NCBI GenBank assembly: GCA_918797485.1
Contig: CAKKNE010000004.1
Location: forward strand, 930,001-994,000
Length of the DNA stretch: 64,000 bases
Source: Pelagomonas calceolata
Lineage: Eukaryota
Reading direction: 5' to 3'
A program made the translations under genes and the position numbers. The notes beneath the pieces were generated by a model. It had not been told where the DNA came from, ran no database searches, and saw only the letters and a program-made list of their open reading frames with translations. Shown here in pieces: positions 755 to 61,149 of this stretch (positions are counted from its first letter, which is position 1; every line of letters begins with the position of its first letter).

Positions 755-1108
755 CGTGCCTCACTCGTCCATTCTGCGGTTAGTGCCCGCCCTGCCGCCG
801 GCCCCGTTCGAGCGCTACCAACGGAACCCCCCCTCCGGGCGCTAGGATTCTGCTTCCGGCATGTCTGACTAAAACTCGTTTACTTAGTAGGCGCGGGCGG
901 CCGTGCGTTGTGGCGGTGACTACTTTTGAGCGTCGGGCTTCGGACCGCTTCGTCTCTGAGATTACTGCGGCCGCAGGCGCGACCAGACTTATCGTCCTTC
1001 AGGAAAAGCAGAGCTAGCGTCTTCGACCCACTAGCTGGTTGGTCTTAGTCAAATGCGCCAGCGCGCCCGGCTTTACTCCGCATAGGTGCACGCAAACAGC
1101 CGTCATCG

Positions 1109-3044
1109 ATGCGCAAACTCTCAACCATGCTGCTCTTGGCGCGCTGCGGCCGCGCCCTCGTCACGCCCGCCGCCGCGGCGGCGCGGAGAGGCCGCGCGCT
1201 CTCGGCAGCGCCCACCTCCTTCCCGCTCAGCAGCAGCAAGACCGTCAAGGTCGAGTACGGCGGCGCGGCCTCGGACTACGCCGGCGATTTACTTTTGTTA
1301 CCGTTCTGGTCCGACAAGGATATTGATGTGGGCGCGGCGACCATCGCGCAGGGCTGGGACGCGGCCTTTGGGGGAGCGCTCACGGAGCTCGCGGAATCCC
1401 AAGAATTCAAGGGGAAGAAGGGCGAGTCCCACGTCTTGACCGTCCCTGGAAGGTTACAAGGTGTCCGGAAAGTAGCGTTAGTTGGACTGGGCCCCAAAGA
1501 TAAAGCTATGGAGGGCTACGCCGCCCTAGGCAAAGCCGTAGCAGAAATAGCGTCAAAAGAAAAGGCGTCGTCCGTCGGCGTCGCGGCGCCTTCGCGAAGC
1601 AGGGACGCCTGGACCTTCGGCGAGCACGTCGAGGCCGTCGCACTGGCGACGTTCGAGGGCTGTTATGTGGACGATAGATTTAGGACGGGCGACAACGTCA
1701 AGAATCCCCCGAAATTATCGTCGTTGGAGTTGGTCGACGAGCCCATGTCGGTCGATGACGTTTCTCCGGACGACGCCTACGCCGCGTCCCTCGAGGAAGG
1801 TCCCCAAGAAAGTGTCGTGTCTGAAGCTGCTGAGAGGGCTCGAGCCTACGCCCAGGGGTCGGCCTTCGCCAAGGACTTGGTCAATGCCCCGCCCAACGTG
1901 TTAACACCTAGAACGTTAGCCATAGCGGCTGTGGAATTGGCCAAAGAACATCAAACGCTGGACTGCACGATCAAGGGGCCCGTGGAGTGCGCTGCGCTGG
2001 GCATGGGCGCGTACTTGGGCGTCGCGCAGGGCGCGTCGTCCGACAACGAGGCGCAATTCGTCCATCTCACCTATAAACGCGGCGTGCCGAAGACGAAGCT
2101 AGCTATTGTTGGGAAAGGTCTCACGTATGATTCAGGAGGCTACAACCTGAAGCCGTCGGCGGGGGGCATGATCGAGCTCATGAAGTTCGACATGGGCGGT
2201 GCGATCTCGGCGTCCCGTCGTGGGGAGGTGCCTCCACGCCGTCGACGCGCGTGGTTTCTTTTTCGATTTTGGGGCCGTTCGGACCGCGAGATGAACGTTT
2301 CCGAACGTCAAGGTCGCGTCGACGCCGTCGACGCGACACAGTATGCTTCGCGCAGGCGCCGCGGCGACGCTCGGCTGCGCCTCGGCCGTCGCTTCCCTGG
2401 AGGTGCCGGACTGTCGCGCGCCGCGTGGAAATCCATTGCAACGCCCGTGATTGCGTTTCCGCACAGGCGAGATCCACTTCATCGTCGCGGCCTGCGAGAA
2501 CATGATCTCCGGCGAGGCCGTGCGGCCCGGAGATGTCTTAACAGCTTCAAATGGGAAGACGATCGAAGTGGCCAATACCGACGCCGAGGGCCGGTTGACG
2601 CTGGCCGACGCCCTCGTGTACGCCGAGAAGCTGCAGCCGGAGGCCATTGTGGATCTCGCGACGCTGACCGGTGCTTGCATCGTGGCGTTGGGCGATGACG
2701 TGGCCGGAGTTTTCACGCAAAGTGATGAGCTCGCAGCGGAACTGTCCAGCGCCTCGAAGAAGGCGAGGGAAGAGGTATGGCGCATGCCCTTGCCCGACGC
2801 CTACGAGGAGCAGATCAAGTCGAAGATCGCTGATTTGGTGAATGTCGGTCCGAGAGCAGGGGGAGCGATCACCGCGGCGCTCTTCCTCGGCCACTTCGTG
2901 GAGGACGTGCCCCACGCGCACGTCGACATCGCGGGCCCGGTCTGGAACGGGAAGGACTCTTGCGCGACCGGCTTCGGGGCGAAGACGATGGCTGCCTGGG
3001 TCGAGGCCCGGGCCGCCGCGTCGGACTTCGGGGCGCCGTTCTAG
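1109..3044 (+). CDS. pepA: M17 leucyl aminopeptidase, probably organelle-targeted; introns 2199-2355 and 2413-2466
   Basis: [40 protein letters not shown]. Removing two GT-AG introns gives a continuous frame. Confidence 0.95.
2199..2355 (+). mobile_element. Repetitive intron, family A/C mosaic
   Basis: Starts GTGCGATCTCGGCGTCCCG like intron 13367. Shares GGTTTCTTTTTCGA...TTCGGAC with 12109, 13367 and 51046, and TTTCCGAAC-TCAAGGTCGCGTCGA with 8832. Confidence 0.75.
2421..2466 (+). mobile_element. Minimal degenerate TIR introner (46 bp)
   Basis: CCGCGTGGAAATC...GTTTCCGCACAG resembles the family TIR and begins exactly 8 nt after the GT donor at 2413. Confidence 0.65.
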
Positions 3045-3069
3045 GGCGTAACTTCTTAGGTGTATAGTC

Positions 3070-3669
3070 CTAGCAATTGATCGGAGCACCCAGCACCCGG
3101 CTGCCGTCGCCAGCGTAGACGCGGTTGCGGATGTCCTGGACTAATCGCCACGGGCACATGTTGAACCAGACGAAGAACGCCACCGCTTTCAGCGGAGCAT
3201 CCATGACCTGCCACGGAAGTCCGACGTACGCCCAGATGGCCAGGCCGACGAGGACCGAGCCTCCCAATACGGTCATCTCGCGTGTGACCACGAACTCGTC
3301 GTAGCCGTTCCACGCGGCTTGCGGGTTCGACTGCACGTGGTGGCGGTAGATGCCTTCGACCGGCGAGTCGCGCGGCAAGCACCGCACGGGGGTGTTGGAC
3401 GGCCACGACCCCGAGGCCCTCCGGGCGACGAAGCGCCGCATGTCATTCGTGCTGACCACCAACGGAGGCCCGCCGGCCGTGCCCGGGGCCCCGGGGTTGT
3501 CCCAGCTCGGCGGCCCCATGCGGAGGACCCAGACGGTGTGCTGGATCTCGTCCTCCGTCGGGAGTTTCTGGCCCGTCTGCGGACAGACTCGGCGCCGCGT
3601 GCCCGCGGCATCCACCACGGTCCTGACGGGCCGGCGCGGCTCGAGCCCTCTCGGAGCTTGGCGCACCAT
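3070..3669 (-). CDS. Hypothetical protein with C-terminal hydrophobic helices
   Basis: 199-aa ATG ORF with GC3-biased codons and hydrophobic segments VLGGSVLVGLAIWAYV and AVAFFVWF. Confidence 0.6.
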   Translation of the reverse strand: MVRQAPRGLEPRRPVRTVVDAAGTRRRVCPQTGQKLPTEDEIQHTVWVLRMGPPSWDNPGAPGTAGGPPLVVSTNDMRRFVARRASGSWPSNTPVRCLPRDSPVEGIYRHHVQSNPQAAWNGYDEFVVTREMTVLGGSVLVGLAIWAYVGLPWQVMDAPLKAVAFFVWFNMCPWRLVQDIRNRVYAGDGSRVLGAPINC

Positions 3670-3845
3670 TTGAGGTCTAGCGTTCGTGCCCGCTTAAGTA
3701 CTCTCTCTCTGAGGAACCTTGACTGATGGTACTTCTTATAATCGGGCGGCGCGAAACGCCTCAATGGCTGTCGACGTAGAAACCCGCGAGCTCTGGAGGC
3801 CCGGGGCTCGATCGCTAGTGAAACGCCTGGCGAAAAAGCGATTAT

Positions 3846-3867
3846 CTAGCGTCCTGTAAGACACTAG
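3846..3867 (-). promoter_or_regulatory. CTAG-bounded intergenic motif
   Basis: CTAGCGTCCTGTAAGACACTAG between divergent genes; exact core CTAGTGTCTTAC on the minus strand. Confidence 0.7.
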
Positions 3868-4112: not shown

Positions 4113-5120
4113 ATGGGGGACAAGTACAAGAAAATCGACGGCGCGGGTCCCCCGCCGGGCGCCGACATCGAGCTCAGCGACCGCAAGCCCAAAAGCACAT
4201 CTGATGAAGACGCCTTCGACGTGCGCGTCCTCGACGTGAAGAAGGCCGGCGCTCCCACCATAATACGCGTGCCGAAAAACGGCACCTGTGCCGATCTCAG
4301 AACTGCGGTCGAGGCCGCAATAGAAAACGCCCCTTCTGATAGACAACGATTAATCTGCAACGGCCGGTCGCTCGGCGACGGCTTACTGTCGGAATTTAAT
4401 GTGGTCCCACGGTCACCATTGTGCACGATTCACTTAACGGTAAGGCCCGAAGGGACGCAAGCGTCATCACCCGCATCAAATGAGGTCCCGTACGACGTCA
4501 GTGCCTTGGTGGCCGCCGTCGCGGCGAACCCCCTGCCGTCGGATCCCGCCGCGAGAGCTAGATATCATGTTGCGCGGACGGGCGCGCGCGTGCGGTTGCT
4601 ATCGTCGTTACTCTCCCTGTACTGTGCGGTCGCTGCTCTCGGAGCTTTTTTAGATGCCACGGCGCCGAACTCCGACGGAGACGTCGTGACCATGGTCGGG
4701 CTGGCGATTAATCTGGCCGGCGTTTACGTCGGTGGCGCGGGGATGCGGGCGGCTCGGAGAGGAGACATCCTCTCGGCGTGTCGCTACGACCATGCTTTAC
4801 GAGCACTGGCGGCGTCGTCCTTGGCCTACGAGGCCTACGTTTCTTTAGTAGTGATCCCGGAGGAGGCGCGGCATCGCGCGCCCTGGGACTCGCAAAGACC
4901 ATCAGGGAACGGCACGACCTACACGCAGAACACGTCCGGCGTGTCCCGAGACGATTTGTTTTTGTCGGGCGTCGTGAGCGTATTGCTCTGGGCGTCGATC
5001 TGGCTCGCCTGCCTGAATTCGTCGGCGCAGTACCGGCTCGCCGTGCGCGACCGGGATTCGGCGGGCGTCCGGGCGCCCGACTTGGAAGTGCAGCAGCCGG
5101 GGGACGCGTTTCTCTTATAA
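4113..5120 (+). CDS. Ubiquitin-like domain membrane protein
   Basis: UBL-like TCADLRTAVE...PSDRQRLICNGRSLGDGLLSEFNV...IHL followed by about 4 hydrophobic helices. Confidence 0.75.
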   Translation: MGDKYKKIDGAGPPPGADIELSDRKPKSTSDEDAFDVRVLDVKKAGAPTIIRVPKNGTCADLRTAVEAAIENAPSDRQRLICNGRSLGDGLLSEFNVVPRSPLCTIHLTVRPEGTQASSPASNEVPYDVSALVAAVAANPLPSDPAARARYHVARTGARVRLLSSLLSLYCAVAALGAFLDATAPNSDGDVVTMVGLAINLAGVYVGGAGMRAARRGDILSACRYDHALRALAASSLAYEAYVSLVVIPEEARHRAPWDSQRPSGNGTTYTQNTSGVSRDDLFLSGVVSVLLWASIWLACLNSSAQYRLAVRDRDSAGVRAPDLEVQQPGDAFLL

Positions 5121-18965: not shown

Positions 18966-18986
18966 CTAGTATCTTACATACGCTAG
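18966..18986 (+). promoter_or_regulatory. CTAG-bounded intergenic motif
   Basis: CTAGTATCTTACATACGCTAG (one mismatch to core), near the centre of the ANK/TELO2 divergent gap. Confidence 0.65.
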
Positions 18987-19046: not shown

Positions 19047-21413
19047 ATGGCTGACGCAACGCCAGCTTCAAGACTGGCAGCCCTGCGCGCCGCCGTCGAA
19101 GGCTGCGCCGCCCACGAGATCAAAAAAGCCGGCCAGCTCCTGCGCGAGGGCGCGGAGCTCCTCAGCGACGAGCGCAGCGATGCATTAACGGAGGGATGGT
19201 GCCGCTGGCTCATTCGGGACGCGGGACCGGCCTGGCGGCGCGCTTTAGATGAGAGCGACGCGTCTGAAGCGATTGACGCCGTCGTCGACGCCGGAGGTTT
19301 GTGTGTAGCGTCCGAAGCATTGGTCGGGGCGACGGCCGCGGCCGCGGTCATTGTTGCACAGCGCGTGAAGAGCTGGGACGTCGCGGCGCTGGTGGCGTCC
19401 CTTACAGATGATGGTGACGACGCGGAGCGGTTCGCGGACGCCTGTGTACGGCTGCCGCGGCGGCTCGCGACGCTCCTGAAGGGCAAGAGTCCATTGGATG
19501 AGGCGGCTTGGCTTTCCGGTGTAGCCGACGGTTCACTAAGGAGCCCCGCCTGGCGCGTTTTAGCTGGACGCCTCGAGGCTTCTGGCCACGCGCCCCTGGT
19601 CGCCGAACGCTGGGTCCTCTGTGACGACGACGACGGCTCGCGATTAGATGCCTTGGGCGCCGGGAGCGCCTGCCGCTACGCCACGTCGCTCCTGGAGGCG
19701 ACGGACTCTCCTCAAACCCTCAGCACAATAATCACGAAGCGCCTACAAAAGTGCCCCGTCCTCCGGAGCAAGTGGACCGACGACGTCGTGACGGGCCGGA
19801 CGCGTTTGAATCATACCAAGGCGTCATTGTCCGTCTACGTCGCCAAGCGCGCGGGCTTGTACACGGAAGCGCTGGCCTCATGTTCAAAGAAGTGGCGCGA
19901 CGTCGCATTTCTGCAGAGTGTTGATGATGATAGAAGAGCGTTCCTCGCCACGTCTATTTTAGCGTTATTAGCCCTGTCGGACCCGGTGGACGTCGACGTG
20001 AACACCACCCTATCAGGTGTTGTGAGCGGCGTGTCGGCCTGCCTCGACCTTAACGATGAAAGAGATAGAGCCCGGGCGATGCTCGTGGGGGACGCCTTCG
20101 GGACGCTCGTCGGGCGCGCGCCGGACTTCGGGGACCTGCTTTCTGAGAGTGATCGGGCCTGGGCGCGCGAAGGGTTGTCCGTCTTGCCTGTGGACGAGGT
20201 CCACGCGGCGTTTCGAAACAGTCATTACTCTTCGAGCGAGGAAGCACCAACGCCGCCGCCTCCACCCGTTGAGAAGAAGAAGACGAAGAAGAAGCGTTCG
20301 CCTGATGATGTCCTCGAGAGCGGCAGCGAGAGCTCCGACGACGAGTCTGTGGAGAGCGCTTCCACTCTATCGGACGACAATTTGGAGGCCTACGATCTAG
20401 AAGATGACGGCGCTGATTTAGTACCGGTGCAGCCCCCGAAATACCTGCGAGACTTGCTCAAACTAATTAACGAAGGCGCGGACCAGGAACTCGCGAGGGA
20501 ACGGCTCCAGATGGCCCTGGCCACGTGCCCGGCGTTAGTAAGGAGTCGACCCGCCGATTTGAAGGATGTGGCTCGCGACTTGGCGCACGCGATCCTCGCG
20601 ACGGAGAACCGTTTTGACTTGGAAGATTTCTCCGAGAAAAGTCGTACTTCGCTGGCGGCGTTAACTGCTTGTAGACCAGTGGAAGTGGTACGCTACCTGC
20701 AGTTGTCGTTCTTCGATAAAGAGCTCGGGCTGAACAAGCGATTGGACGCGTTGCAAGCGATGGTCGACGGCGCCTACGAGTTGGCGGGCCGCGGGCGCCT
20801 CGCCGAGAATGAAGATATGCCCGACGGCACGGCCAAAGCTTTATTGGGTGTCGGTTCTACTCGTTCCCGGAAATTGTTAGATACGTCCGACACGAAGGTC
20901 CTGGAACGAACGAGGAGGTGGGGCTACCGTCGAACAGCGTTGCAACCGTCGTCACCGAACCTCTTCGCCCAACATGCGGCCTCGTTGTTCTTCTTTCCGT
21001 TACTGAGAGGTATTGTGGAGCACTGGGCGCCTCTGCAAAAGCGGCACCCCCACCACGCGACGGTGTTGCGAGCGCGGGCCGTGCACGCCTTGGCGTGCTT
21101 CTTGGATTGCGCGTCGAGCGCGCCGGGCAGCCAGGCGCTGGCGTCGCATTTATTGGCGTTTGCTTGGAGAGATGTAAGATCCGAGGATGCGGCTTTGAGA
21201 AGGGCGGCGCGCGGCGCCGCTTTGACTGCTTTAGCGTGGCGGCCGTGTGACGACGGCGGCGGCGCGTTGGCGTTGCTCGCGGGCGGGATCTGTGCCGATT
21301 TACCTTCTCCCGAGGACGTGCGGTCGCTCGCGTACGAGGGCCGCGACGACCCGGACGACGCGGCTCGTCGGTTGGCGCTGGCGCTCGGGGAGCTTTGTCC
21401 GGCGGGCTTCTAA
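19047..21413 (+). CDS. TELO2: Telomere length regulation protein TEL2 homolog (TTT complex)
   Basis: Acidic S/D linker, PKYLRDLL, DLAHAILATENRFDLEDF, TRRWG, NLFAQHAASLFFFPLL. Confidence 0.85.
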   Translation: MADATPASRLAALRAAVEGCAAHEIKKAGQLLREGAELLSDERSDALTEGWCRWLIRDAGPAWRRALDESDASEAIDAVVDAGGLCVASEALVGATAAAAVIVAQRVKSWDVAALVASLTDDGDDAERFADACVRLPRRLATLLKGKSPLDEAAWLSGVADGSLRSPAWRVLAGRLEASGHAPLVAERWVLCDDDDGSRLDALGAGSACRYATSLLEATDSPQTLSTIITKRLQKCPVLRSKWTDDVVTGRTRLNHTKASLSVYVAKRAGLYTEALASCSKKWRDVAFLQSVDDDRRAFLATSILALLALSDPVDVDVNTTLSGVVSGVSACLDLNDERDRARAMLVGDAFGTLVGRAPDFGDLLSESDRAWAREGLSVLPVDEVHAAFRNSHYSSSEEAPTPPPPPVEKKKTKKKRSPDDVLESGSESSDDESVESASTLSDDNLEAYDLEDDGADLVPVQPPKYLRDLLKLINEGADQELARERLQMALATCPALVRSRPADLKDVARDLAHAILATENRFDLEDFSEKSRTSLAALTACRPVEVVRYLQLSFFDKELGLNKRLDALQAMVDGAYELAGRGRLAENEDMPDGTAKALLGVGSTRSRKLLDTSDTKVLERTRRWGYRRTALQPSSPNLFAQHAASLFFFPLLRGIVEHWAPLQKRHPHHATVLRARAVHALACFLDCASSAPGSQALASHLLAFAWRDVRSEDAALRRAARGAALTALAWRPCDDGGGALALLAGGICADLPSPEDVRSLAYEGRDDPDDAARRLALALGELCPAGF

Positions 21414-21990
21414 GAGGTGTTGTTTTTGTACTTCTCCCCTCCACGCCGTCGCCGCGATAGCGTGCAAAGCCAAACTCGGAGCTAGCGTAATCGATACACT
21501 AGCAAATTCAAAGATACGCTTCGATAGCGTCAAAAGAATGACCCAAATTCAGAATACATCCTAGTCGTTTTGCCGCGACCAAATATTTCAGAGTAGCGGC
21601 CCGGGAACATACCCTCGCGCCTCCCGGAAGGCACCGCCCGCGACATTCGCGGATGAGTCTTACGGCTCGCCAAAATACACTAACGATTGACGCCGCCATC
21701 TACCGTCCAGATAGTACATTATATCAACTCCAGCTCAGTTTTCATACACACTCGACGGAACCGGAGCCGACGGCCCGCGCTCGGAGGGCGGGAGAAGAAT
21801 TCTACTAGACAACTCTCGCGTTTATGTTCATTTCCTTCCTTTTGTTAGTGGTAGAGTCCATCCAAGCCGCATCAGCGCCCACTCAGCTATTTTAGGTGCT
21901 CCGTCAGAGCCGCGCGAAACAGCGAATCCGCGCCCCCACGTTTTCCCTCAGGCGAGCTCAGAACCCAAATTCGCGAGTATCAGCGACGCC

Positions 21991-22333: not shown

Positions 22334-23160
22334 GCGAGGTCCAGATGCAGATGTTCACGTCCCGAGCGTGGGCAGCTCAAAGTACCCTTCTCGCGGTGTA
22401 GATGCCATATATTTGTAATTGACTATCGGTGGGTTAGTATGGGGTCCAACGAGACCGCTACGGCGATTACTGGGGGCCCTCGAGTAATTGACGTTTTTGC
22501 CGGGAACGGGGCGCCATCGGGTCCAAATTGCACACTTTTTTCGGGGGCGGATCGGCACTCGGACGCCCTCCGGGATAGGTCTGGGGTGGGGTGGTCGCCT
22601 ACGCCGCATGCGCCGATTCTTGGGGGCCTCCGAGGGCTCTGGAAGCCATTGCCAAGTAATTCAAGCCCGAGCGGCTTGGAGTGTTGAGAGAATTGGCTGA
22701 TAATCTCCCGAAGCGACGGCGTATGCGGTGTAGGCGACTAACCATGTATAGACCGACCCTAAACGACCCCAGGGAGACCTCTTGGGCAGGGATTGACAGG
22801 ATTAAACCGGAACGGCCGCCCTGGCTCATGCCGGCTCGTTGGCCGCGAATTAAAAAATTTCCTTTTTCGCCCCCCAGTACGTGCCCCATTGCTCTCTTTG
22901 GACCCTTAGCGAACGGAAAGGTACTCAAGCGCCTGCATGTAGTAGCTGCTTCCCCCCAAAACTAGTATGTCTCGCCTAGCCCGGTCACCGTTTCATTTGG
23001 AACCGAGCCAATTTTGCGCTGCATCGCGGTCATTGGGCCGAGCCAGAGGCGCACACAGTGGCTTCAAGGCTCTTTGTGCACAGCTCCGGCCGCGCAGCGC
23101 TTCACGCCGTCGTTTCACGCCCCCCAAACAGTCCACCGCCAGTTTGTCCGCAGCAACGCG

Positions 23161-23706: not shown

Positions 23707-24002
23707 AGTGGCCCGGTCGCGGCACCTAGACTAGACTAAGATGAAGTTATTATCCGAGACACACGCATGGAGTCGTTCTTGATACCTTCGCGATCAGTCC
23801 GCGGCGACAGAGCTAGCATAGCGACACACTAGTTGTCTTGGCGGCGGCTGCTTTGCAAGAGCGCCTGGACGTGCATGCAGTTGTAGAGAGACAAGGCAAC
23901 GATTCACTGTGATCTCTACGCCAGCCGCGGCGCGAATCCGGAGCAAGCGGCTCGTCCTAGACCCAAGCAAGCCACTGGTTCCAAGCACAGCTGCCATCCA
24001 GA

Positions 24003-25376: not shown

Positions 25377-25396
25377 CTAGTGTCTTACACCGCTAG
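25377..25396 (+). promoter_or_regulatory. CTAG-bounded intergenic motif
   Basis: CTAGTGTCTTACACCGCTAG about 130 bp upstream of the psb28 ATG. Confidence 0.7.
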
Positions 25397-38227: not shown

Positions 38228-38248
38228 CTAGTGTCTTACGACCGCTAG
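38228..38248 (+). promoter_or_regulatory. CTAG-bounded intergenic motif
   Basis: CTAGTGTCTTACGACCGCTAG about 120 bp upstream of the channel ATG. Confidence 0.7.
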
Positions 38249-38350
38249 CGGATTCTAAACGCGGGAGCCGTCTAAGCGCACACCCGCACGAGATTCAATG
38301 AATCACAGACGCCATCGCCGCGACGCGCGCGTAAACTTTCACGACCATTA

Positions 38351-39239: not shown

Positions 39240-39261
39240 CTAGCGGAGTGTAAGACACTAG
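39240..39261 (-). promoter_or_regulatory. CTAG-bounded intergenic motif
   Basis: CTAGCGGAGTGTAAGACACTAG in a divergent gap. Confidence 0.7.
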
Positions 39262-39334
39262 AAAGCACAGCGCAAAAACGCCAGCAGCGCATCTGCTGCA
39301 CAAAGATTCTGTTTTCGAGTGCCATTTATCGTAA

Positions 39335-51000: not shown

Positions 51001-51740
51001 CTCCTCCTGGTCGACCTCCGCTTGGAGCAAATCGAGTTGCTTCGCCTGCGCGGAGCATCGCGGTGTCCGAACGGCCTCAAACTCGAAAAAGAAACGACCC
51101 ACGGCATCGTGAGACGGACACGAGTCCACCACAACACGACGGGACGCCGCGAGCGCGCCTCCCACTTGTCGAGGTACGCCTGCCTCGCGAACTTTCTCAT
51201 TAATTTAACATCATCTTCCCTTGCGAGCGGGTCGACGGTCCCTCGCGTGGCCAACTCCGCGATCTCCTGCTGACTGAGCCCTTGCTCCGCTTCTAATCGT
51301 TTCGTTCTAAGTTCGTCCCTTTCCCTCATCCTTTGCACTAGTGCGTCGCGCTCCTCCAGGTCCTCGTCCAGGGCGTTGTCCTTCCGCTGGGCCTCGGGGT
51401 CCACGATCTGCTGCGTGCGCTGCGTTCTTCTTCGTTGTTTCTCTCGCAGCTGCTCTATCCTCGACGTGGTGTCGTCTTCGTTCGAAGATGGCAAAGGTTG
51501 CCGTCTCCGTCTAGGTTGTTGGGACGAGGTTTGGGCGCCGGCCGAGCCTCTCGCTCGCTGCCACAATTCGTCGCAGAAGTTGGCATCGTTGATGTCGGCC
51601 TCTCTGAGCAGTGCCGCGAGCTGGTCTCTCGAGGAGGCCCTGGCGGGTAAGGACGCGACGTAGGACGCTACGCTGGACGAGGAGAAGCCGGCGACGGCGT
51701 GGAGGGCGTCGGCGACCCAGGCTTTGAGGTCGTCGGCCAT
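48089..51740 (-). CDS. DHX16: Pre-mRNA splicing DEAH helicase DHX16/Prp2; introns 51046-51158, 50824-50925, 49901-50104, 48893-49056
   Basis: [54 protein letters not shown]; spliced length 3069 nt. Confidence 0.93.
51046..51158 (-). mobile_element. Repetitive intron, family A (GC-AG)
   Basis: GGCGTCCCGTCGTG...CACGATGCCGTGGGTCGTTTCTTTTTCGAGTTTGAGGCC...CTCCGCGCAG, similar to 13367, 12109 and 2199. Confidence 0.78.
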
Positions 51741-52084
51741 GGCTGCGGTGCGGCCTCAGGAGGCAGGGCCTGCTCTCCGCTGCTGTTGGGCCCGCGAGTC
51801 TATTTTTTTGGCAGGCGGTCACAGTGGTGCCGTAGGTCTGCTGCCGCAACGCTGGCTTATCACCACGGCGGTTCTGCACTCGTTCCAGGCGCTCAAAGCT
51901 TTAGCCCATGAGGCTAGTACGAGAGTACGCTAGCAAGACGCGTCTCGAAGACGCCTGAATCGCTCTGCGCACGCGTCGGAGAGCCGGCGACGGCGTTGGA
52001 GGCTGGCAAAAGGCGCGTCCTGAATTGCCTCGCTTTGGCCCGCAGCAGGACCGGCGATCGAGCTTTACGCCGCGGAGGACAGCC

Positions 52085-52767
52085 ATGGGGTTAAACTCAG
52101 CGTCTCTAGGAGCCATGAATGATGCAAAGAAAGCACCGCTGGAGCGATAAGACCGTCGGACGTCCAGCGAGCGAGTACAGCTCTTGCTGCAGCGAGGCCG
52201 CCTGTACATGCTACAAGCGCGCCCGCGGGCCGCAAGACTGAGAGCCGGCACCGCTAGCAATCCTGCGAGCCCGCCGGCAACGCTCGGAGGCCGCCGGCGA
52301 CGCTCACAGAGGACGCGCCAACGAGACGCCCGCTCGAGACCGCGAACGAAGCATCACACCCCTCACCACACAGGTTCTCCCGCTTCGTCGAAGTCGGACG
52401 GATCGTCCTCGTGAACTACGGCCCCGACGCCGGCAAGCTCGCGACGATTATTGATATTGTCGACGGGAACAAGTGCATGATCGACGGGCCCGTGCCGAAG
52501 ACGGGCGTGGCGCGCCAAGTCATCCCCTTCAAGCGGCTCGCATTAACTGACATCGTCATCGAAGTGCCCAAGAGCGCTAGGCAGAAGACGCTCGTGAAGG
52601 CGTGGGACGCCGAGAAGGTCGAGGAGACGTGGGCCGCCACCTCCTGGGCGAAGAAGTTGGCAAGAAAGAAGGTGCGCGCGTCGCTGACGGACTTCCAGCG
52701 CTTCCAGCTCATGGTCGCGCGGAAGCAGAAGGCGGCATTGGTCAAGGCGCAGCTCGAGAAGATGTGA
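52085..52767 (+). CDS. RPL14: 60S ribosomal protein L14 (eL14); probable intron 52090-52373
   Basis: MG|FSRFVEVGRIVLVNYGPDAGKLATIIDIVD...LTDFQRF. First exon inferred. Confidence 0.92.
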
Positions 52768-52895
52768 GGTAGACGGGTAAAAAAAAATACTAGTGATTCG
52801 CGTCGACGGCGTGGTGGGGGGCGTCTTCCGGCGACAGGTGCGACTCGTGATAGGAGTACACCGTCACGGTGAAAAATTAAAAAAACATCACGACG

Positions 52896-53711
52896 TTAGA
52901 AAATAGAAAACTCCTCGCGCACATCCGACTCGCCCGGGAGGCGGCTCCGCTCGACCGCGGTGACGGAGCCGTCCGCGCGGACGAGGAACACCGTATGCGT
53001 CCGCGTGCCCCAGAACTTGTTCGAGGAGACCTCGACGGGCGGCACGCAGACGTAGCAGAGCCGGTCCTCGACGCTTGGAGGCATGCGCGTCGGCGAGAGC
53101 GGTAGCTTCGTGCCGTCGGCGAGCACATCAAACAACGCCTCCACGAGGGCGTCGTCCGCAGCGTCGCGGAGCGCCTCGGCGAAGCGTGCGCGCCCCCGCT
53201 CCGCCGTCGACCAGGCCGCGTCCAGGCCGGGCGCGGCGTTCGTGATCACGCTGATCCCGCGCGGCATCTCTGCGACACCACCGCCGCGGTTGCACGCGTG
53301 CCAGGCGTCTTCACTTGATCCGAAGACGGCGTTGAAGCCCGCGTATTGCGCGCCGTCGCGGACGGCGGCGCGCGCCGCTTCCTCTGGCGTTGACTCGCCG
53401 AGCAGAAAATTCGCGCAGAGCGCGCCGCGCGACGGGGCATCTGGCGGCGCTTGCTCCGGCTCGCGGACGTTCAGAATACACGACCAGCGTCCACCGTCAG
53501 ACATCCCTAGCCACGTGCCACCTCCACTTATATCGCGGCCGCCGACCACCTTCTCGTTGTCGCGCCAGCGCCCGAGCCGGTCCGCGGGCCTTGATAAGAT
53601 CTCGTCGCGGTTCGACGCGATGACGAGGCGGTAGCGTTTGGCGAGTTCGTGCTCCCACTCCTCACAAACCTCGTCCGGCGCCGGCGCCCGCCACACAAAA
53701 ACCAGACACAT
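52896..53711 (-). CDS. TANGO2: TANGO2 / NRDE-family protein
   Basis: N-terminal MC, IASNRDE, GRDISGGGTWLG, SRG, YAGFN, GTRTHTV. Confidence 0.92.
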   Translation of the reverse strand: MCLVFVWRAPAPDEVCEEWEHELAKRYRLVIASNRDEILSRPADRLGRWRDNEKVVGGRDISGGGTWLGMSDGGRWSCILNVREPEQAPPDAPSRGALCANFLLGESTPEEAARAAVRDGAQYAGFNAVFGSSEDAWHACNRGGGVAEMPRGISVITNAAPGLDAAWSTAERGRARFAEALRDAADDALVEALFDVLADGTKLPLSPTRMPPSVEDRLCYVCVPPVEVSSNKFWGTRTHTVFLVRADGSVTAVERSRLPGESDVREEFSIF

Positions 53712-53870
53712 TCAGAGGTCGTGCACAATCTCCGCGCCGAGCTCGTGACCCGCGAGCCAGATGAAGAGCGTCAGTAAACCGGCGATGGACGTGAGCACGA
53801 TGCAGAGGTCCCAGGGACCGTCGGGCTCGTCCTGCGGTCGGCGGCGCGGCAGTCGCGGCTTGGGGGGCAT
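53712..53870 (-). CDS. 52-aa single-TM microprotein ORF abutting TANGO2
   Basis: MPPKPRLPRRRPQDEPDGPWDLCIVLTSIAGLLTLFIWLAGHELGAEIVHDL*; start context CCAAAAACAC-ATG; TGA immediately followed by the TANGO2 ATG. Confidence 0.65.
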   Translation of the reverse strand: MPPKPRLPRRRPQDEPDGPWDLCIVLTSIAGLLTLFIWLAGHELGAEIVHDL

Positions 53871-54034
53871 GTGTTTTTGGGCTGTGCTGGGTGGTGGTGT
53901 TGTGCAGCGGCAGTTATGGCCGACGAGTGGCGCTGTCGTGTTAGATACAGCGAGCAGCGATGCGAAGCGTCACTTCTACGGTCCGGAGACCTACTGCTTC
54001 GATCTCTACGTCCACTTTTTTCACCCTGGGATTG

Positions 54035-54056
54035 CTAGTGTCTTACAGACCGCTAG
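54035..54056 (+). promoter_or_regulatory. CTAG-bounded intergenic motif
   Basis: CTAGTGTCTTACAGACCGCTAG, about 165 and 162 bp from the divergent ATGs at 53870 and 54218. Confidence 0.7.
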
Positions 54057-54217
54057 CCCTCTGAAATTCAGGGTCAGCTTTGTTCCGGGCGCGCGACTCA
54101 AAAGGCGGGCACGCGAGACTCCCTAGGCCAGTAGCCCTCCGCCTAAACGGCGCCCGCCGCGAACGCCGCGAGAAAACGCCCCGAAACCGCCGACCAATAA
54201 TTGCCACAAAAATCTCC

Positions 54218-55237
54218 ATGGCCGAAGACGCCGCGCCGCCAGAACTCCCGCCCCGCGAGGCCGCCACCCCACCAGAACTCCCGCCCCGCGAGGCCGTCGA
54301 AAGCCTCTCCCTGGAAGAGGACGTCGCCGACCTCGACGCGGCCGCGGCCGACGAAGGCTACGAGGAGGAAGCCGCCGACGCCGCCGAGGAGCTGCAGGAG
54401 GCTCCTCTGACGGAGGAGGAGGAGGAGGAGGCCCGCGGCGTGGCCCAGCATTTGCTGCTCAACGCGCCGCCGGGCGAATTCACAGAGCTTCTCGACGATG
54501 TCGCCTCAATTACGCCGGAGCGGGCGCTCGAGGGCGGCTTCGTGAACGGCGTGGCGCGCGCGCGCAACGCCCAGATCCTCGAGGCCGCGATCACAGAAGA
54601 CGGGGCGCGCGTCGTCTTGTGCCGCGAGGCGGAGGTGACGCCTACTTCTTATAGAGATGCAAACGGCAAGCTGTACGACGTCGACCATGCTACCCTCGAA
54701 GCCATACCGGTTGAGGACGTGTATGACGAGGACGCTGTGCCCGAGTCACTGAAGAGCGCGAGAGACGACCTCCAGAAGGCATTGGCCGTGTACGCCTCCA
54801 CAAGATACCTGGGCGAGGGCCACGCCGCCACATTTGTGGTAGGAGACGCCCTGAAGTGCGTCGTGCGCGGCGCGCGGAAGAACCTTGGAAACTTCCACTC
54901 GGGAAGCTGGGCGTCGGCCTGGACCCTCACGCCGTCTTCCGAGGGCTACGACGTGCAGGGCATGATACAGGTACGAGCCCACTACTTCGAGGACGGCAAC
55001 GTGCAGTTGTATGCGACGAAAGAGGTCACGGCGTCGACGCGAGACGTCTCCCAGTTAATCGAAGCCAGCGAGAACGAATTGCACGCCGGCTTGGAAGCGA
55101 TGTACGGCGACATGGCCGACGCGACCTTCAAAGCCTTACGTAGAGTGATGCCCATCACGAAGCTCAAGATGAAGTGGTCCGTGGACGCCTTACGGCTCAA
55201 GGGCGGTTTAACCAAGGCGGCGGCGGAGGCGTACTAA
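54218..55237 (+). CDS. CAPZA: F-actin capping protein alpha subunit
   Basis: LLNAPPGEF, NFHSGSWASAW, HYFEDGNVQL, FKALRRVMPITK. Confidence 0.92.
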   Translation: MAEDAAPPELPPREAATPPELPPREAVESLSLEEDVADLDAAAADEGYEEEAADAAEELQEAPLTEEEEEEARGVAQHLLLNAPPGEFTELLDDVASITPERALEGGFVNGVARARNAQILEAAITEDGARVVLCREAEVTPTSYRDANGKLYDVDHATLEAIPVEDVYDEDAVPESLKSARDDLQKALAVYASTRYLGEGHAATFVVGDALKCVVRGARKNLGNFHSGSWASAWTLTPSSEGYDVQGMIQVRAHYFEDGNVQLYATKEVTASTRDVSQLIEASENELHAGLEAMYGDMADATFKALRRVMPITKLKMKWSVDALRLKGGLTKAAAEAY

Positions 55238-55246
55238 GTAGCTATC

Positions 55247-56062
55247 CTAGAGCGGCTTACTCACGGCGGCGGAGGAGTGCTCCGCGCGCGCTTTTCTCCT
55301 CACGAGCCAGGCCCGCAGGACGCCGCGATCCTCGCGCTCCCCGTCACTCAACAACCTTTCATCCCCATGGAGCTCCGGCCGCCTTTCCACAATGTGCGTC
55401 AGCACCGGGCCGCCGAGCAACGAGGCCCATCGAACGGGCGCCGTCGCCAGCGTTCCTTTCTGGAAGTCGAAAATTTGCAGTGACGCCTCTTCCGGTCTTT
55501 TCTTCGGAGAATTCTTTTCCGCGGAAGCGCAAACTTCTCTAGCTGGCGCGCAAGCTAACGCAAAGGCGCCTAAGAGTCGTCGCACGCCTACCGGTAGTAG
55601 CGAGGGGTCCTGCAAAGCGTCCTCCGGTCGTAGCCACCGCGCGAAGGCGAACGCTCCGATTGATGTGGCGCACAGATGCTCGAGGTCCCGCAACCACAAA
55701 GCGTACATGCATCGTGACGGGTCTAACTCCTCGTAGAGCCGGGCGAAGAGCACCGAACCGATTTCTAGAGCAGCGACGACGCTCTCCCGCACGAGACGCC
55801 TCAATAGCATCCGCCACGCGTCGACCCCATACGAGCATCGGATATCCGACAGCCACGGTCTCGTACCGGTCCAGGGCCTTCGTTTAATGTCCATGATGCA
55901 ATATCCAACCTCCCGCTCGTGCCTTTCAACGACGGGCTCCTCACTGCGCTTCTTGCAGGGCGTCGGCGTGTATTCGAGCGCCATGACGACGCTGCCGTCC
56001 ATGGACGGCGGCGGCGCGCCGGAGGGGCGCGTCGGTGGCGTTTGTGGGGGGTCTGCTGCCAT
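55247..56062 (-). CDS. Hypothetical protein
   Basis: 271-aa ATG ORF filling the gap between CAPZA and the next divergent gene. Confidence 0.6.
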   Translation of the reverse strand: MAADPPQTPPTRPSGAPPPSMDGSVVMALEYTPTPCKKRSEEPVVERHEREVGYCIMDIKRRPWTGTRPWLSDIRCSYGVDAWRMLLRRLVRESVVAALEIGSVLFARLYEELDPSRCMYALWLRDLEHLCATSIGAFAFARWLRPEDALQDPSLLPVGVRRLLGAFALACAPAREVCASAEKNSPKKRPEEASLQIFDFQKGTLATAPVRWASLLGGPVLTHIVERRPELHGDERLLSDGEREDRGVLRAWLVRRKARAEHSSAAVSKPL

Positions 56063-56421
56063 GGCTTTGTGCCTGGCGGTTCCTCCGCCGGTCGTCGCGC
56101 AGTGCCTTCCTCCCTGTGGTCGCTCGGGCAGCGTCCGCGAGCCAGGCGGCAGAGAGGCAACGGATGGCCGCCTAGCTAGAGACACACTAGGAATCACTCG
56201 GCGTTATCGTCCGCGCGCTGGTCTTGGGCCCTCCACGAGGCTCTAGGTTCACCAAAGGACCGGGAGACGCGCCCCTGTCGCACGGCACCCCCAGCGCACC
56301 CGCGACCGCCGGACGGGCAGCCTAAGCAGCGCCAGCTCGATACTTGGTAGGGGCAGCCATACCAGCGCCACCCGCGAGACCTAAGTCAACAGGGAGGGGC
56401 AGCTGACCCCCCGAGGCAAGG

Positions 56422-56871
56422 ATGGCCGACACGGGCAAGATCAAGGAGATGAAGGATAGGGAAGAGCGCTGCGAGCGCGCACGTACCCGCGTCTCGCGAT
56501 CTCGGCACCGAAACTCGGACACGACCTCCGAGCGATACCCTCGACCCAGTATGGAGAGTAACACCTCCCCCAAACCACGACACACCCCGAGTTGAAGCGC
56601 AACTTGACCTTGGATTGCCCCGCAGGCCCAAAAGTACGTCAACGAATTGCAGGAGGTGCACCAGCGCGTCCAGTTCGAGGCCAAGGGCACGCAGAAGAAG
56701 CTGAACGCGCTGCGGAAGCGGGCGGCGGCGGCGGCGGAGGACGAGGCGCGGTGTCTGGACGCCGAATTGGTGATTGCGCGGCGCCAGAAGTTGAAGGACC
56801 TCTACGCGTCGGACTACGACCGGTACCAGGTGGAATTGGAGGCCATGGGGCTGTCGCTGAACTTCGAGTAA
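56422..56871 (+). CDS. Small coiled-coil protein, CFAP141-like (ciliary); probable GC-AG intron 56479-56625
   Basis: C-terminal ELVIARRQKLKDLYASDYDRYQVELEAMGL resembles my recollection of the CFAP141/DUF4558 tail. Confidence 0.6.
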
Positions 56872-57168
56872 GTGCTTCTCTATAAGCATCATGTGGACTC
56901 GGCGGCCGTTTGCGCGGGGCGCCTTGTCGGGTCTTCCCACGAGAGAGTTTTCATGGCGGGCCGGGTCCTGGAGGCCTGGGGGCCCGGGGGGAAAACTCTC
57001 GGCCGCAGCCGCGCGCGCCCTGCGAGAGTCTTGGCACAGAGAGAGGCAGGCCAATTAGGGGCAGCGTCCGGCCTCACCCCGGGGCGCAGCGATCGCAGCG
57101 GTCGTCGCATCAGTTCGTCGCATCGATAGCGTGCACATGCAAGCGACGCGAGGGGCAGCCCGACAGTG

Positions 57169-58272
57169 ATGGTCTCAAGCAAGCAGGCCCTAGCTGAGGC
57201 GCACGCCGCCGCCGCGCGGCGCGCCGCCCGGGCGCGCGTCGCGGCGCTGAAGGCCGGGACTAGTGCCAAGCCGGTGGTCGACGCGACCTGGGCAAAGCTG
57301 ATGCAGGGCTGTGCGGACTGTCAACAGCGCGCGGAGGCGGCCGAGACCCTGGAGACCTGGCGCGCCTTCGCGGCGGCAGCGCACGCGTTGCGGGACGCCG
57401 TCGGCATTGAGGGAGACAAGTGCGAGGAGCCGGGGTGCAAGACGTGCCAGCCGACTCCATTTCTTTTTGTCCCGAAGGGAGTCGTGATGCCCCCAGCCCC
57501 ACCAAAAGACGAGCCCACGCCGGAAGAGCGCAGGAACGCCCAGGCCTTCGCGAAGAAGGCGACGTGCGACGCTGGAATTGGGCTCGGGGGTCTATTGCTG
57601 AAGCGCGGGCGGCGAGGGGAAGCTTGTGACGCGTTGGCCACCGCTCTCAAGGCCGACGAGTCGAACGGCGAGGCCTGGACCTTACGGGCGGCGGCCTTCG
57701 CAGAGATGGGTGAGGACGGCTCTATATTGGAAATTGTCGAGCTTCATTTACGGAAGGCCGCGCAGCTCTCGCCGGACGACGACGAGCTTCAAGCACAGCA
57801 CGCCGTCGCGGCGTGTCGGGCGGCGGTCGTCATGGAGGCGACTGACCCGCCTCGCGTGGAGGGGACGCTCGCCGAGCGCGCGCGACAAGCGTCGACGCTC
57901 CTCGAGGACGGTGCCACACTCATGAGAGAAGGCCTCTACAAAACCGCACATAGCCGGTATCTGCGCGCGGTCGACCTGCTCGACGCGCTGCCGGGTCCCA
58001 AGGCGAAGGCCGCGGCCGACGAGGCGCGGCTCAACGCCGCGGGGTGTCTGTTGCAATTGCCGGGCGACCACGACGTCGCGAGTTTATGTGATGCGCTACC
58101 GTCGACGCGGGCCCTACTACGGCGCGCGGCGGCGCGCGAGCGACGTGGGGACTACGCGGCGGCGCTCGCCGACCTGCGCGAGGCGCGCCTGTCATCCGTC
58201 GACCGGGCACTCGTCGACGCGCGGATCGCGCACTGCGAGCATTTGCGGGATACGCGTGGGGTGGTCGTGTAA
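57169..58272 (+). CDS. Tetratricopeptide-repeat protein
   Basis: ALKADESNGEAWTLRAAAF, HLRKAAQLSPDD, ALLRRAAARERRGDYAAALADL. Confidence 0.8.
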   Translation: MVSSKQALAEAHAAAARRAARARVAALKAGTSAKPVVDATWAKLMQGCADCQQRAEAAETLETWRAFAAAAHALRDAVGIEGDKCEEPGCKTCQPTPFLFVPKGVVMPPAPPKDEPTPEERRNAQAFAKKATCDAGIGLGGLLLKRGRRGEACDALATALKADESNGEAWTLRAAAFAEMGEDGSILEIVELHLRKAAQLSPDDDELQAQHAVAACRAAVVMEATDPPRVEGTLAERARQASTLLEDGATLMREGLYKTAHSRYLRAVDLLDALPGPKAKAAADEARLNAAGCLLQLPGDHDVASLCDALPSTRALLRRAAARERRGDYAAALADLREARLSSVDRALVDARIAHCEHLRDTRGVVV

Positions 58273-58304
58273 TGTGAACATAGATTGTGAACACAAGTTA
58301 TAAG

Positions 58305-59564
58305 CTAGCGCCGCCGCGTCAACAGCGCCGCCGCCAGCAACCCTATCGACACGACGGCCGCCGCGCGCGAGATCGCCGCGGCCAGCCGGTCCAGCGCCGG
58401 CGCGACGCCGTCGGAAGGCGGGACCGCTGGCGCCGCCGGGGGCTCCTCCGTCGGCGCGTGCACCACACCACCGCCCAGTAGAGTAGCCAACGCCACGTAG
58501 TGCGCGCCCCGCAAGCCCAGATCGTCGACGAGCACCAGGCGCAACGGCACGCGGTCCAACACGGGACGCAACCGCCCCCGATCTTTGTAAGCTTCCAGGA
58601 ACACCCTTTCTTTGAGCCTCTCCCGATTCTTCACGGCGATGCCCCCACAAACATAAAGCCCGCCGAACGGCAGCCACTTCACCGCAGCGTTGCCAAGTTC
58701 CGCGCCGTAGGCATCGAGGACCAGATTCAAAGCCTCGCCACAGAGATGGTCGTCGTACGCGGCCCTTGCTATAACTCCAGCACCCTCCGGGTGTGCTTTT
58801 ATTCTCTTCTGCAGATCTTTATCGACTTTTCCCGGAAACTTCTCGGCAAAAAAATCGTACACGTTGACGATGCCCTTTCCGGAAATGACCCGTTCCGCCG
58901 AGACGCGCCCACCGAATCTGCGTTGTAGTGCGGTCAACAGTTCCGTCTGGATGGCATCCCTGGGAGCGAACGCGACGTGACCGCCTTCCGAGGGCCACGC
59001 CTCATACACGCCTGACGAAGCCGTCGCGTAAGCTTCACCTAAACCAGTACCCGCCCCGACGCAAGCGATCGGCGCACCAGGTGACGGTTGCGACGGCCCA
59101 TTCAACGTCGAATAGTCGCCGTCGCGCAGCGTCACGACGCCGAATCCATTAGCAACAAAATCATTGACTAAACGCATCGTGCCCGGTTGCATGCGGAATT
59201 CGGCCTCGAGGAGTCTAGCTTCTATCCTCCACCCGAGATTCGTGAACGTGACCCTATCTCCCTCTTCTACCGGTCCGGCTACCGCCAGACATCCCGCGGC
59301 GAGTTCTACTAAACCAACGTTGGCCTCCGCGAGAAACGCGTGTAAGAGCTCGGTAAAGTCTCCGGGCAGGTTGTTCGTTTTATATGTTTGCGCATACAGG
59401 GGCGGCTCCGTGCCTATCGCCTCGAGGTCTTTCTTGGAGGCGGTGTGCTGGAGGCGGAAGAGCTCCAAGCGGCTGTTGGTGCCGCCGAGATCGCCGCACA
59501 GCACGCAGCGGACGTTGGCGAGCATGGAGGCGGACCTTGTCATGCGGGGGCGCTCGGGCGCCAT
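58305..59564 (-). CDS. glk: Bacterial-type glucokinase with C-terminal membrane anchor
   Basis: GDLGGTNSR, LAVAGPV, LVNDF, GAGTGLGEA, SEGGH, AERVISGKG, GGLYVCGGI. Confidence 0.93.
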   Translation of the reverse strand: MAPERPRMTRSASMLANVRCVLCGDLGGTNSRLELFRLQHTASKKDLEAIGTEPPLYAQTYKTNNLPGDFTELLHAFLAEANVGLVELAAGCLAVAGPVEEGDRVTFTNLGWRIEARLLEAEFRMQPGTMRLVNDFVANGFGVVTLRDGDYSTLNGPSQPSPGAPIACVGAGTGLGEAYATASSGVYEAWPSEGGHVAFAPRDAIQTELLTALQRRFGGRVSAERVISGKGIVNVYDFFAEKFPGKVDKDLQKRIKAHPEGAGVIARAAYDDHLCGEALNLVLDAYGAELGNAAVKWLPFGGLYVCGGIAVKNRERLKERVFLEAYKDRGRLRPVLDRVPLRLVLVDDLGLRGAHYVALATLLGGGVVHAPTEEPPAAPAVPPSDGVAPALDRLAAAISRAAAVVSIGLLAAALLTRRR

Positions 59565-59778
59565 GGTGTTTTGGTGTGATTCGCCGCGGCGGTGATTCGC
59601 GCCCGCTTTTTTGGTGGACTTTGGCTGTCGGTGGTTGCGTGAGCCTTTTATGGCTGCGCGATGCCGTAGCTATGCAGGAAACGCCGCGTCGGCGACGTCA
59701 ACCGCTTCTCGACGAGCGCTGGTGCAACCGACGCGGCCCTACAGCGAATTCCCGCTTGCCCTGAAAAAAGCGGCGGAG

Positions 59779-59800
59779 CTAGCGGCATGTAAGACACTAG
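59779..59800 (-). promoter_or_regulatory. CTAG-bounded intergenic motif
   Basis: CTAGCGGCATGTAAGACACTAG about 215 bp upstream of the glucokinase ATG. Confidence 0.7.
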
Positions 59801-59884
59801 GAGAGGGGTACGGGGGACCCCGCGACGTAACTAGCCTGAGCCTGAGGCATCGACAGGGGGAACGATCGCAAAGGGCGAGACCGA

Positions 59885-60918
59885 TTACGCACACGTCGCC
59901 AGCAGTCGCGGCACGACGGTCGGATGCTTCCGCCCGAGCGCCGCCGCGCACGCTTCCGCGCGACGCCGCCATGCCGCTGCGCAGGAGCGGTCCGATGAAC
60001 CACGAGCGCAGGCGCGGGCGACGCCGTCGAAGCCACCGTCCGCCGGGCGGCCATCAGACGCCGCGTAGGCTCGCAAGCGCGCCAACCATGGCTTCACGCG
60101 CGTCAGACAATCAGTAGTCGCATTGTCGGAGCCGCGAAAGAAGCCCACCTTCGCCACACCCAGGAACTGCGCGAAGGCGACGGCATGCGCGCGCGGGTGC
60201 CGCGCCGCCAAGTCGTAGGAGAGGAAGAAGGTCCGCCGGCAGTCGAGGCCTTTGATGGCCTTCTCGAGGCGCGCGACCGCTTTGGCGTAAAACGCTTCTT
60301 CGCGGTGCAGCGTGTCGACGCGGCCCCCGTCCATATCCCTAAACTTCCAGAAGCGCCTCAATATACTCTCCTGCGTCGCCACGGCGTCCCTCACCAGGAC
60401 GACGTGCCAGCGGCCTTTGTCCACGACGGGATACTTCGGCGCGTCATTACTAAAGCAGCGCCAGGCGCTCCCGCGGCGCGCGCGGCTCCGCGCCTTTACA
60501 TACACAACTTTGGCGCCGACGCGCGACTCGGAGCAACACCCGCCACAACTGGAAAAGGAAAACTGGCCGCCGCACCGCTTCAGCTTGCCGCCGCCGCCGC
60601 AGAGGCGCCGCGGCAGGCCCTCGAGCCAGTGGTGACCTGTGTGGAAATCAATGCAGTTACGTACGGGAAGACGCGTCGCGTCGATGGCGGGGCGTCCGAA
60701 ATTTGATTTCCACACAGGTGGTGGCCCACGCCCTCGGTGCCCAGGGTCTTGAAGTTCGAGCCCTTGGGCTTCGGGCGCCAGCCGTGTTGGCGTTGGGCGG
60801 CGAGGCAGCGGCCCGCGGTGCTTGCGGGCGGCCAGAGGCGTGATGCTACGTCGAAATATTCAGTCGCGTTCTCGGGCCGCGCGGCCGCCGCGGTTATGAC
60901 GGCGAGGAGGCGGCGCAT
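59885..60918 (-). CDS. Secreted sulfotransferase-like protein; GC-AG intron 60637-60725
   Basis: Signal peptide; LGTEGVGHH (PSB-loop-like), VVLVRDAV..S..RR, LSYD; spliced length 945 nt. Confidence 0.65.
60637..60717 (-). mobile_element. TIR introner element with 8-bp TSD (7/8 match)
   Basis: CTGTGTGGAAATCAA...TTGATTTCCACACAG; flanks GTGGTGAC (60629-60636) and GTGGTGGC (60718-60725). Confidence 0.92.
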
Positions 60919-61128
60919 GACTCGCGGGTCGTCAATTGATGGTCCCCATTAATTACGGCGCTCGCGGCGACCAGTGCTTTATGCCAATTTTTTGCAGGCA
61001 GATAAAATATGAACACAGGCCTTCCGGACAGGTGCTTATCATATCAAAAGGCACGCCCCCACAGTGACGAATCTCCCTTGAAGGTATTGCTTCTACAAAG
61101 CAAATGGTAGGGTTACGCATAAAGCGAG

Positions 61129-61149
61129 CTAGCGAATGTAAGACACTAG
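61129..61149 (-). promoter_or_regulatory. CTAG-bounded intergenic motif
   Basis: CTAGCGAATGTAAGACACTAG near the centre of a divergent gap. Confidence 0.7.

Follow-up and report, generated by a model that had tools for sequence, protein, structure and literature searches.

We analyzed a 64,000-nucleotide (nt) stretch of the Pelagomonas calceolata genome (contig CAKKNE010000004.1, positions 930,001 to 994,000; hereafter, the window), in which a two-armed motif, CTAGTGTCTTAC-N2-4-CGCTAG, recurs in the gaps between genes. The motif is real and probably acts as a general promoter element in Pelagomonas-like algae, one that apparently has not been described before. With a probability of about 0.7, we propose that it is an intergenic, orientation-independent pelagophyte element at gene starts, likely to be bound by a putative general transcription factor, which would fix transcription starts ~30 nt beyond either arm. 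This proposal is based on the exclusion of the motif from coding DNA, its enrichment at gene starts, its symmetry, its retention at homologous promoters, its unrelated neighbors, the absence of transposon signs and the RNA 5' ends found nearby. The original prediction, made from the letters of the window, had proposed a general, bidirectional promoter site, and all the sequence tests run, as well as the nearby RNA 5' ends, support the general and orientation-independent reading.

A constrained two-armed motif with symmetric placement between genes

The window contains seven exact copies of the motif, located where originally reported and all closed by CGCTAG, while none of 100 dinucleotide shuffles reached seven (mean 0.00). 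Allowing one mismatch in the left 12-mer gave nine matches versus 0.05 expected, including a full copy with its right arm at 18966. Pairs of the form CTAG-N10-16-CTAG occur 17 times versus 1.98 expected. Besides the seven exact copies, the window holds a single near-exact copy and some six loose ones. A two-arm weight matrix, built from metagenome sites and used with a score threshold of 12, gave nine window sites scoring at least 18, all non-coding, against a null mean of 0.1. The one-mismatch copy and the six loose pairs of the original prediction are all present, but the matrix supports them unequally: the scores at 56172, 1014 and 23813 are marginal, and the copies at 22962 and 51914 do not reach the threshold.

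Scanning metagenomes with the strict pattern returned at least 124 stretches (L001-L124) with 129 matches, corresponding to 125 distinct sites after removing four duplicates; all counts out of 125 refer to these distinct sites among the matches listed. Their consensus is (G)(C)TTG-CTAGTGTCTTAC-(AGGC)-CGCTAG-CT, ~27 nt overall, which keeps the core first described but is longer, and the information reaches background level within 6 nt to the left and 3 nt to the right of the motif. Read inwards, the half-sites of the two arms, GCTAGTGTCT and GCTAGCGGCC, make up an imperfect inverted repeat, and the spacing from CTAG to CTAG is 16-19 nt. The spacer had been given as 1-4 nt; its actual length is 2-4 nt for the window copies and 2-5 nt for the metagenome sites (4 nt at 76 sites, 3 nt at 35, 5 nt at eight and 2 nt at six). 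A 1-nt spacer was allowed by the pattern yet found at no site, suggesting that few of the matches are due to chance. The differences in motif length correspond to indels at several inner positions. Around the motif, within ~100-150 nt, the GC content falls to 0.55-0.59 and CpG declines.

The arms are under constraint. When window sites were selected on the left arm only, the right arm was present in seven of seven cases, and its bases differed at 0 of 42 positions, compared to 5 of 16 in the 4-nt spacers (p = 0.001). Similarly, four of four unselected CTAGTGTC sites in the locus flanks have another CTAG at a distance of 16-18 nt. The motif is also kept, amid drifting flanks, at four homologous promoter pairs (L016/L113, L052/L095, L066/L071 and L093/L097), which is the conservation that the original prediction had asked about, in pairs all ascertained on the motif; these align at 69-81% identity, with intact arms, spacer indels and diverged immediate flanks. 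In a fifth pair (L039/L083), the motif is inverted ahead of the same gene.

To place the sites relative to genes, we used a coding model trained on 35 open reading frames (ORFs) of the window, which called strand and frame correctly for 88 of 88 held-out pieces. None of the 125 sites overlaps a predicted coding segment, though 55% of the locus bases are coding. The claim that the copies are intergenic holds for these sites, with the exception in the window of a second one-mismatch 12-mer, at 41849, which lies inside a helicase ORF and lacks the right arm. A gap class was assigned where both neighbors were callable within 500 nt, i.e. for 48 sites: 26 are divergent, 20 tandem and two convergent, against a baseline of 36%, 48% (introns included) and 16%, respectively, of the non-coding bases of the window. 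Convergent gaps are therefore under-used (2/48 versus 16%, p = 0.014), and 46 of the 48 sites face at least one gene start.

The motif occurs in both orientations. Tandem sites show no preference (11 versus 9), and the ATG lies at a median of 155 nt from the CTAGTG side (n = 49) and of 164 nt from the opposite side (n = 48; p = 0.30). In the divergent pairs (n = 22), 11 sites lie within a tenth of the gap centre (centring p = 8e-5 versus uniform). These figures, with the inverted copy at L039/L083, agree with use in either orientation and with the near-centring first seen in the window, where the reported ATG distances were correct to within a few bases. The window sites had suggested that the motif directs its CACTAG end toward the gene, but this failed on the larger set, with the same 11 versus 9. 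As originally observed, the genes concerned are functionally unrelated: 48 of 110 neighboring segments have Pfam families, belonging to metabolism, transport, translation and signaling. In addition, of all 8-mers in the L001-L124 flanks, up to 120 nt from the motif, GGCTGCCC shows the highest enrichment (16 versus 2.5 expected), and is possibly a further promoter word.

RNA 5' ends near the motif at four sites

We examined stranded polyadenylated [poly(A)] RNA sequencing (RNA-seq) data from one sample, with four runs over 51500-62600 and two over 21000-40600. By our own count, the RNA-covered stretches contain 16 motif-facing sides; the 5'-end figures are among the rows listed. At four of the five listed sides, the 5' ends lie 25-32 nt outside the motif and point away from it, three of them off the CTAGTG arm and one off the CGCTAG arm. 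They map to 54008 for the 54035 copy (27 nt off the CTAGTG arm), to 25348/25351 on the Psb28 side of the 25377 copy (26-29 nt off the CTAGTG arm), to 56216-56222 for the loose copy at 56172 (26-32 nt off the CTAGTG arm), and to 59749/59754 on the glucokinase side of the 59779 copy (25-30 nt off the CGCTAG arm). The simulated chance of four of five ends falling inside an 8-nt span is 0.001, if ends are uniform between motif and ATG. The original prediction had named the position of the motif relative to start sites as a check, and these results suggest a link to the start that is tighter (~30 nt from the motif edge) than it had proposed, at four sites only.

A spliced transcript on the + strand runs from ~59830 to 61140, between two motif copies, with introns at 60628-60718 and 60963-61019. 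It is transcribed opposite to glucokinase and is antisense to a little-expressed predicted gene (59885-60918, -), which fits two-way firing at the 59779 copy. No TATA-like word was found within 45 nt upstream of any of eight RNA 5' ends, nor any TATA-like excess in the pooled flanks of the listed loci. YCAYY, the initiator-like pattern of the oomycete INR, was present at none of the eight starts.

Our model proposes that a putative dimeric or two-domain factor would bind both arms and keep the intergenic gap accessible, with initiation positioned just outside its footprint in both directions. A single site could then serve two divergent genes, or a gene and an antisense RNA. A bolder version, which we consider doubtful, is that in Pelagomonas-like algae a lineage-specific two-armed core promoter element would replace the TATA box, one complex starting transcription ~30 nt outward on both sides. 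The 27-nt site alone would then make up the entire core promoter of two divergent genes, and a domesticated transposase-like dimer might be what reads it.

Copies in the window and lineage of the motif

The copies in the window are listed below. With eight strong sites for ~45 genes (hand count), about one promoter in five carries the motif.

Motif copies in the 64-kb window
Copy	Position	Strand	Context
Loose	1014..1034	-	74 nt ahead of leucine aminopeptidase ATG (1109, +)
Exact, 4-nt spacer	3846..3867	-	divergent gap, ORFs 3070-3669 (-) and 4113-5120 (+)
One mismatch	18966..18986	+	mid-gap, ankyrin gene (ATG 18890, -) and TEL2-like gene (ATG 19047, +)
Loose	21482..21502	-	left end of multi-copy non-coding stretch; no gene start adjoining
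Loose, short	22962..22979	+	181 nt ahead of ORF 23161 (+)
Loose	23813..23832	-	170 nt ahead of ORF 24003 (+)
Exact, 2-nt spacer	25377..25396	+	upstream of Psb28 gene (ATG 25247, -)
Exact	38228..38248	+	upstream of ion-channel/WWE gene (ATG 38106, -), directly beyond mTERF stop
Exact	39240..39261	-	between mTERF (likely ATG 39124, -) and ORF 39335 (+)
Loosest	51914..51933	+	between DEAH-helicase region (ATG 51740, -) and RPL14 (ATG 52085, +)
Exact	54035..54056	+	mid-gap, ATG 53870 (-) and capping-protein ATG 54218 (+)
Loose	56172..56190	-	between ORF 56062 (-) and CFAP141 gene (ATG 56422, +)
Exact	59779..59800	-	upstream of glucokinase (ATG 59564, -)
Exact	61129..61149	-	between ATG 60918 (-) and pyroglutamyl peptidase ATG 61342 (+)

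Among the RNA rows listed, the 38228 and 61129 copies have no 5'-end pile-up. Near the 39240 copy, + strand depth climbs only at the end of the bin 38658-39311, and upstream of the 22962 copy there are hardly any + strand reads. The capping-protein gene (54097-55209) has zero reads in all runs, and such dips are uninformative. Two additional loose CTAG pairs chain on from the 25377 copy, at 25393 and 25411. The region 21440-22980 (~1.5 kb) is non-coding and multi-copy, so that reads from its other copies map there; it holds a 74-nt direct repeat and a 37-nt inverted repeat, with a loose motif at each end. Lone arm-like words (CACTAG, CGCTAG, CTAGCG, CTAGT), possibly half-sites, occur in promoters that have no full motif, at 28967, 15145, 17513 and 33810. 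At a few sites, a AAACGCGGGAGCCCTGGAAG-like second element lies 6-40 nt past the CGCTAG arm (38257 in the window; L017, L040 and L106), and a 44-nt repeat (91-95% alike) adjoins the motif at three unrelated loci (window 59803-59846; L008 and L078). This repeat accounts for chimeric read joints between 54032 and 59803.

Other features of the window were also observed. The gene 34938-38106 (-) joins a neurotransmitter-gated ion-channel ligand-binding domain to a C-terminal WWE domain. At 56479-56625, 60963-61019, 29402-29476 and 37876-38028 there are spliced introns with GC donors as well as introner-like palindromic introns whose ends are alike. A 52-codon ORF at 53712-53870 (-) has coding-like composition and no Pfam family, and its TGA abuts the TANGO2 ATG (53711). 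Pile-ups at 53496 and 53399 and a drop in depth suggest that most transcripts stop within TANGO2.

The window is eukaryotic and gene-dense, with 63% GC, and the nearest named relatives of its glucokinase are from Chrysophaeum taylorii (53%) and Aureoumbra lagunensis (54%), while environmental proteins at 84-97% are closer than those of the named pelagophytes. The GT-AG and GC-AG introns with palindromic ends and the 63% GC agree with the account of P. calceolata given in its genome preprint (10.1101/2021.10.25.465678). Among the metagenome loci, the protein adjoining the motif at L073 has pelagophytes as nearest named relatives, and the remaining listed loci resemble the window in composition and introner-like repeats. 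None of the 124 loci listed is an orthologue of the window, and their matches to it are confined to repeats.

The strict pattern had no match in viral contigs. A looser pattern returned 54 viral stretches with scattered spacing, which we took as chance; only one (L161) is motif-like, with a one-mismatch copy in 45% GC DNA that may be due to chance or host-derived. Prokaryote genomes gave 10 matches to the strict pattern, seven of them on contigs of metagenome-assembled genomes with motif-type flanks (L125, L126, L128-L131 and L134) and several near contig ends. It is likely that these seven contigs represent pelagophyte DNA that was binned with, or joined to, bacterial and archaeal genomes, and the reading as a bacterial element was rejected.

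Alternative explanations and comparison with known systems

Several observations weigh against the promoter reading. A 5'-end pile-up is listed for at least five of the 16 motif-facing sides, the rest being without a listed row, and at most on one side of any given site. One of the five is an exception: on the RPL14 side of the loosest copy, 51914, the ends lie at 52045-52058, 112-125 nt away. All the 5' ends are uncapped ends from poly(A) RNA-seq of a single sample, and the pooled flanks contain no initiator-like or poly-A/T signal at a fixed distance. The majority of window promoters do without the motif, including three with listed RNA 5' ends (28910, 29094-29102 and 33908-33924) that have no full copy, while the good copy at 21482 faces no gene start and lies inside a repeat. 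Near-centring is in part expected from short gaps. Finally, since all the homologous pairs were found through the motif, they reveal shared placement between lineages and give no retention rate.

Some of these points would also fit a chromatin boundary, insulator or replication-origin mark, whose location in promoter gaps would only reflect that, in a compact genome, the open non-coding DNA is found there, with the 30-nt offset as a by-product of a positioned +1 nucleosome. The same position and symmetry data are compatible with such a mark, as are its presence at only a minority of promoters and the copy at 21482, at a repeat end without a gene. Moreover, yeast general regulatory factors are described as acting partly by restricting, not driving, initiation (10.1101/331793). 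Nevertheless, we consider this explanation unlikely, given the scarcity of convergent sites and the RNA 5' ends within 8 nt of one offset at four of the five listed sides. A role in blocking or terminating transcription of the upstream gene would fit the position of the 25377, 38228 and 59779 copies, each of which directly follows the 3' end of a gene, as well as the drop in + strand depth near 61129. However, the 26 divergent sites of 48 have no incoming gene and only two are convergent, making this function highly improbable.

The motif could instead be a neutral relic of a mobile element, either a 12-15 nt remnant between duplicated CTAG targets or a footprint, with a preference for promoter gaps. 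The two terminal CTAGs could themselves represent a 4-nt target duplication, the arms are arranged as an imperfect inverted repeat, introner-like elements are numerous in the genome (10.1101/2021.10.25.465678), and loose copies flank the multi-copy stretch at 21.4-22.9 kb. The original prediction had named flanking homology or target duplications as signs of such an origin; we found no flanking direct repeat (of at least 2 nt) at 119 of the 125 sites and only 14 flank-to-flank matches among them. Furthermore, information is lost right outside the motif, and the conserved arms beside variable spacers do not correspond to uniform decay. The motif persists where its flanks diverge, its flank preference is not palindromic, and transposase, reverse transcriptase and helitron families are found in none of the 110 neighbors. 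We therefore judge a neutral relic very unlikely, although a now functional site may have been co-opted from a transposon. Helitron-end and CACTA-end readings were rejected on flank and alignment evidence and on orientation.

We also weighed whether the motif acts as a hairpin, in RNA or as a DNA cruciform. The CTAGTG strand folds into a stem of 7-9 pairs, with deviations that include G-U wobbles, reaching -10.6 and -12.0 kcal/mol at two window sites. However, the commonest variant breaks a pair, with a mismatching C opposite T7 in 71 of the 125 sites, and folding is no better than with column-shuffled spacers (-6.60 versus -6.72). The DNA fold amounts to only -1.5 kcal/mol, the flanking pairs show no covariation, mapped transcripts start outside the motif, and an Rfam search gave no match in the window, nor in 21300-23200 specifically. 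A hairpin function thus has very little to recommend it.

Taken as a promoter element, the motif would have several implications. Pelagophytes rank among the most abundant ocean eukaryotes (10.1101/2021.10.25.465678), and we found no described promoter grammar for them. As in the original prediction, which did not recognize the motif as described, our literature search, whose coverage largely left out subscription papers, gave no description of it in work on Pelagomonas promoters, motifs or binding sites, pelagophyte start sites or Aureococcus core promoters. There was also none among the matches listed for the literal motif strings, where the exact 12-mer occurred a single time, in a paper on yeast diphthamide, and the words 'motif' and 'promoter' do not occur in the main text of the Pelagomonas genome preprint (10.1101/2021.10.25.465678). 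Being long and nearly invariant, the motif is a direct bait for finding its putative factor. It could also be used as a compact bidirectional promoter for transgenes, as a gene-start marker for annotation, and as a sequence tag by which this algal DNA could be recognized in metagenome bins. If true, the 30-nt offset on both sides would represent a new way of setting starts in a TATA-less eukaryote. A virus infecting the related alga Aureococcus methylates its own genome at CTAG-type words (PMC12700378); any link between this methylation and the motif is speculation.

How does the motif compare with known systems? A likeness to the RFX X-box was rejected, with a G at position -4 in only 10% of the listed sites. 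The TATA box lies ~30 nt upstream of the start site, and the motif is alike in this placement; it differs in being two-armed, GC-containing and symmetric in use. The yeast Abf1 site is bipartite, and we know of no likeness in sequence between the motif and the Abf1, Reb1 or Rap1 sites. These yeast sites resemble it in that one site type, present in hundreds of copies in yeast, is found at unrelated promoters in short gaps, but in yeast the start is reached by scanning, at a considerable distance downstream of the pre-initiation complex, whereas the pelagophyte 5' ends lie ~30 nt from the motif (10.1101/331793).

Miniature inverted-repeat transposable elements, transposon footprints and pelagophyte introner elements (10.1101/2021.10.25.465678) share with the motif short interspersed copies with inverted ends. 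In contrast to them, the motif is only 20-23 nt, with no internal body and no duplication outside the CTAGs; its arms are under constraint, and among the listed sites it is never in coding DNA. The closer parallels are in function. Human bidirectional motifs (NFY, SP, ETS, ZNF143, NRF1 and CREB) have a near-symmetric effect on the two strands, outward transcription, a position-specific offset and unrelated targets (10.1101/2023.06.27.546584). The pelagophyte motif is not known to resemble them in sequence and differs from them in its ~27-nt length and its variable spacer, and its offset is drawn from four RNA-seq sites. The oomycete elements INR, FPR and DPEP are likewise a lineage-specific core block, of 16-19 nt, in a TATA-less stramenopile genome, and INR+FPR occurs in a minority of genes (~13%); these elements overlap or follow the start and are directional, while the pelagophyte motif lies upstream, in either orientation, and has no sequence in common with them (PMC3599244). 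By analogy of role, we suggest that the motif would fill in pelagophytes the place of the oomycete INR+FPR, and would work like the human bidirectional motifs and the sites of the yeast general regulatory factors.

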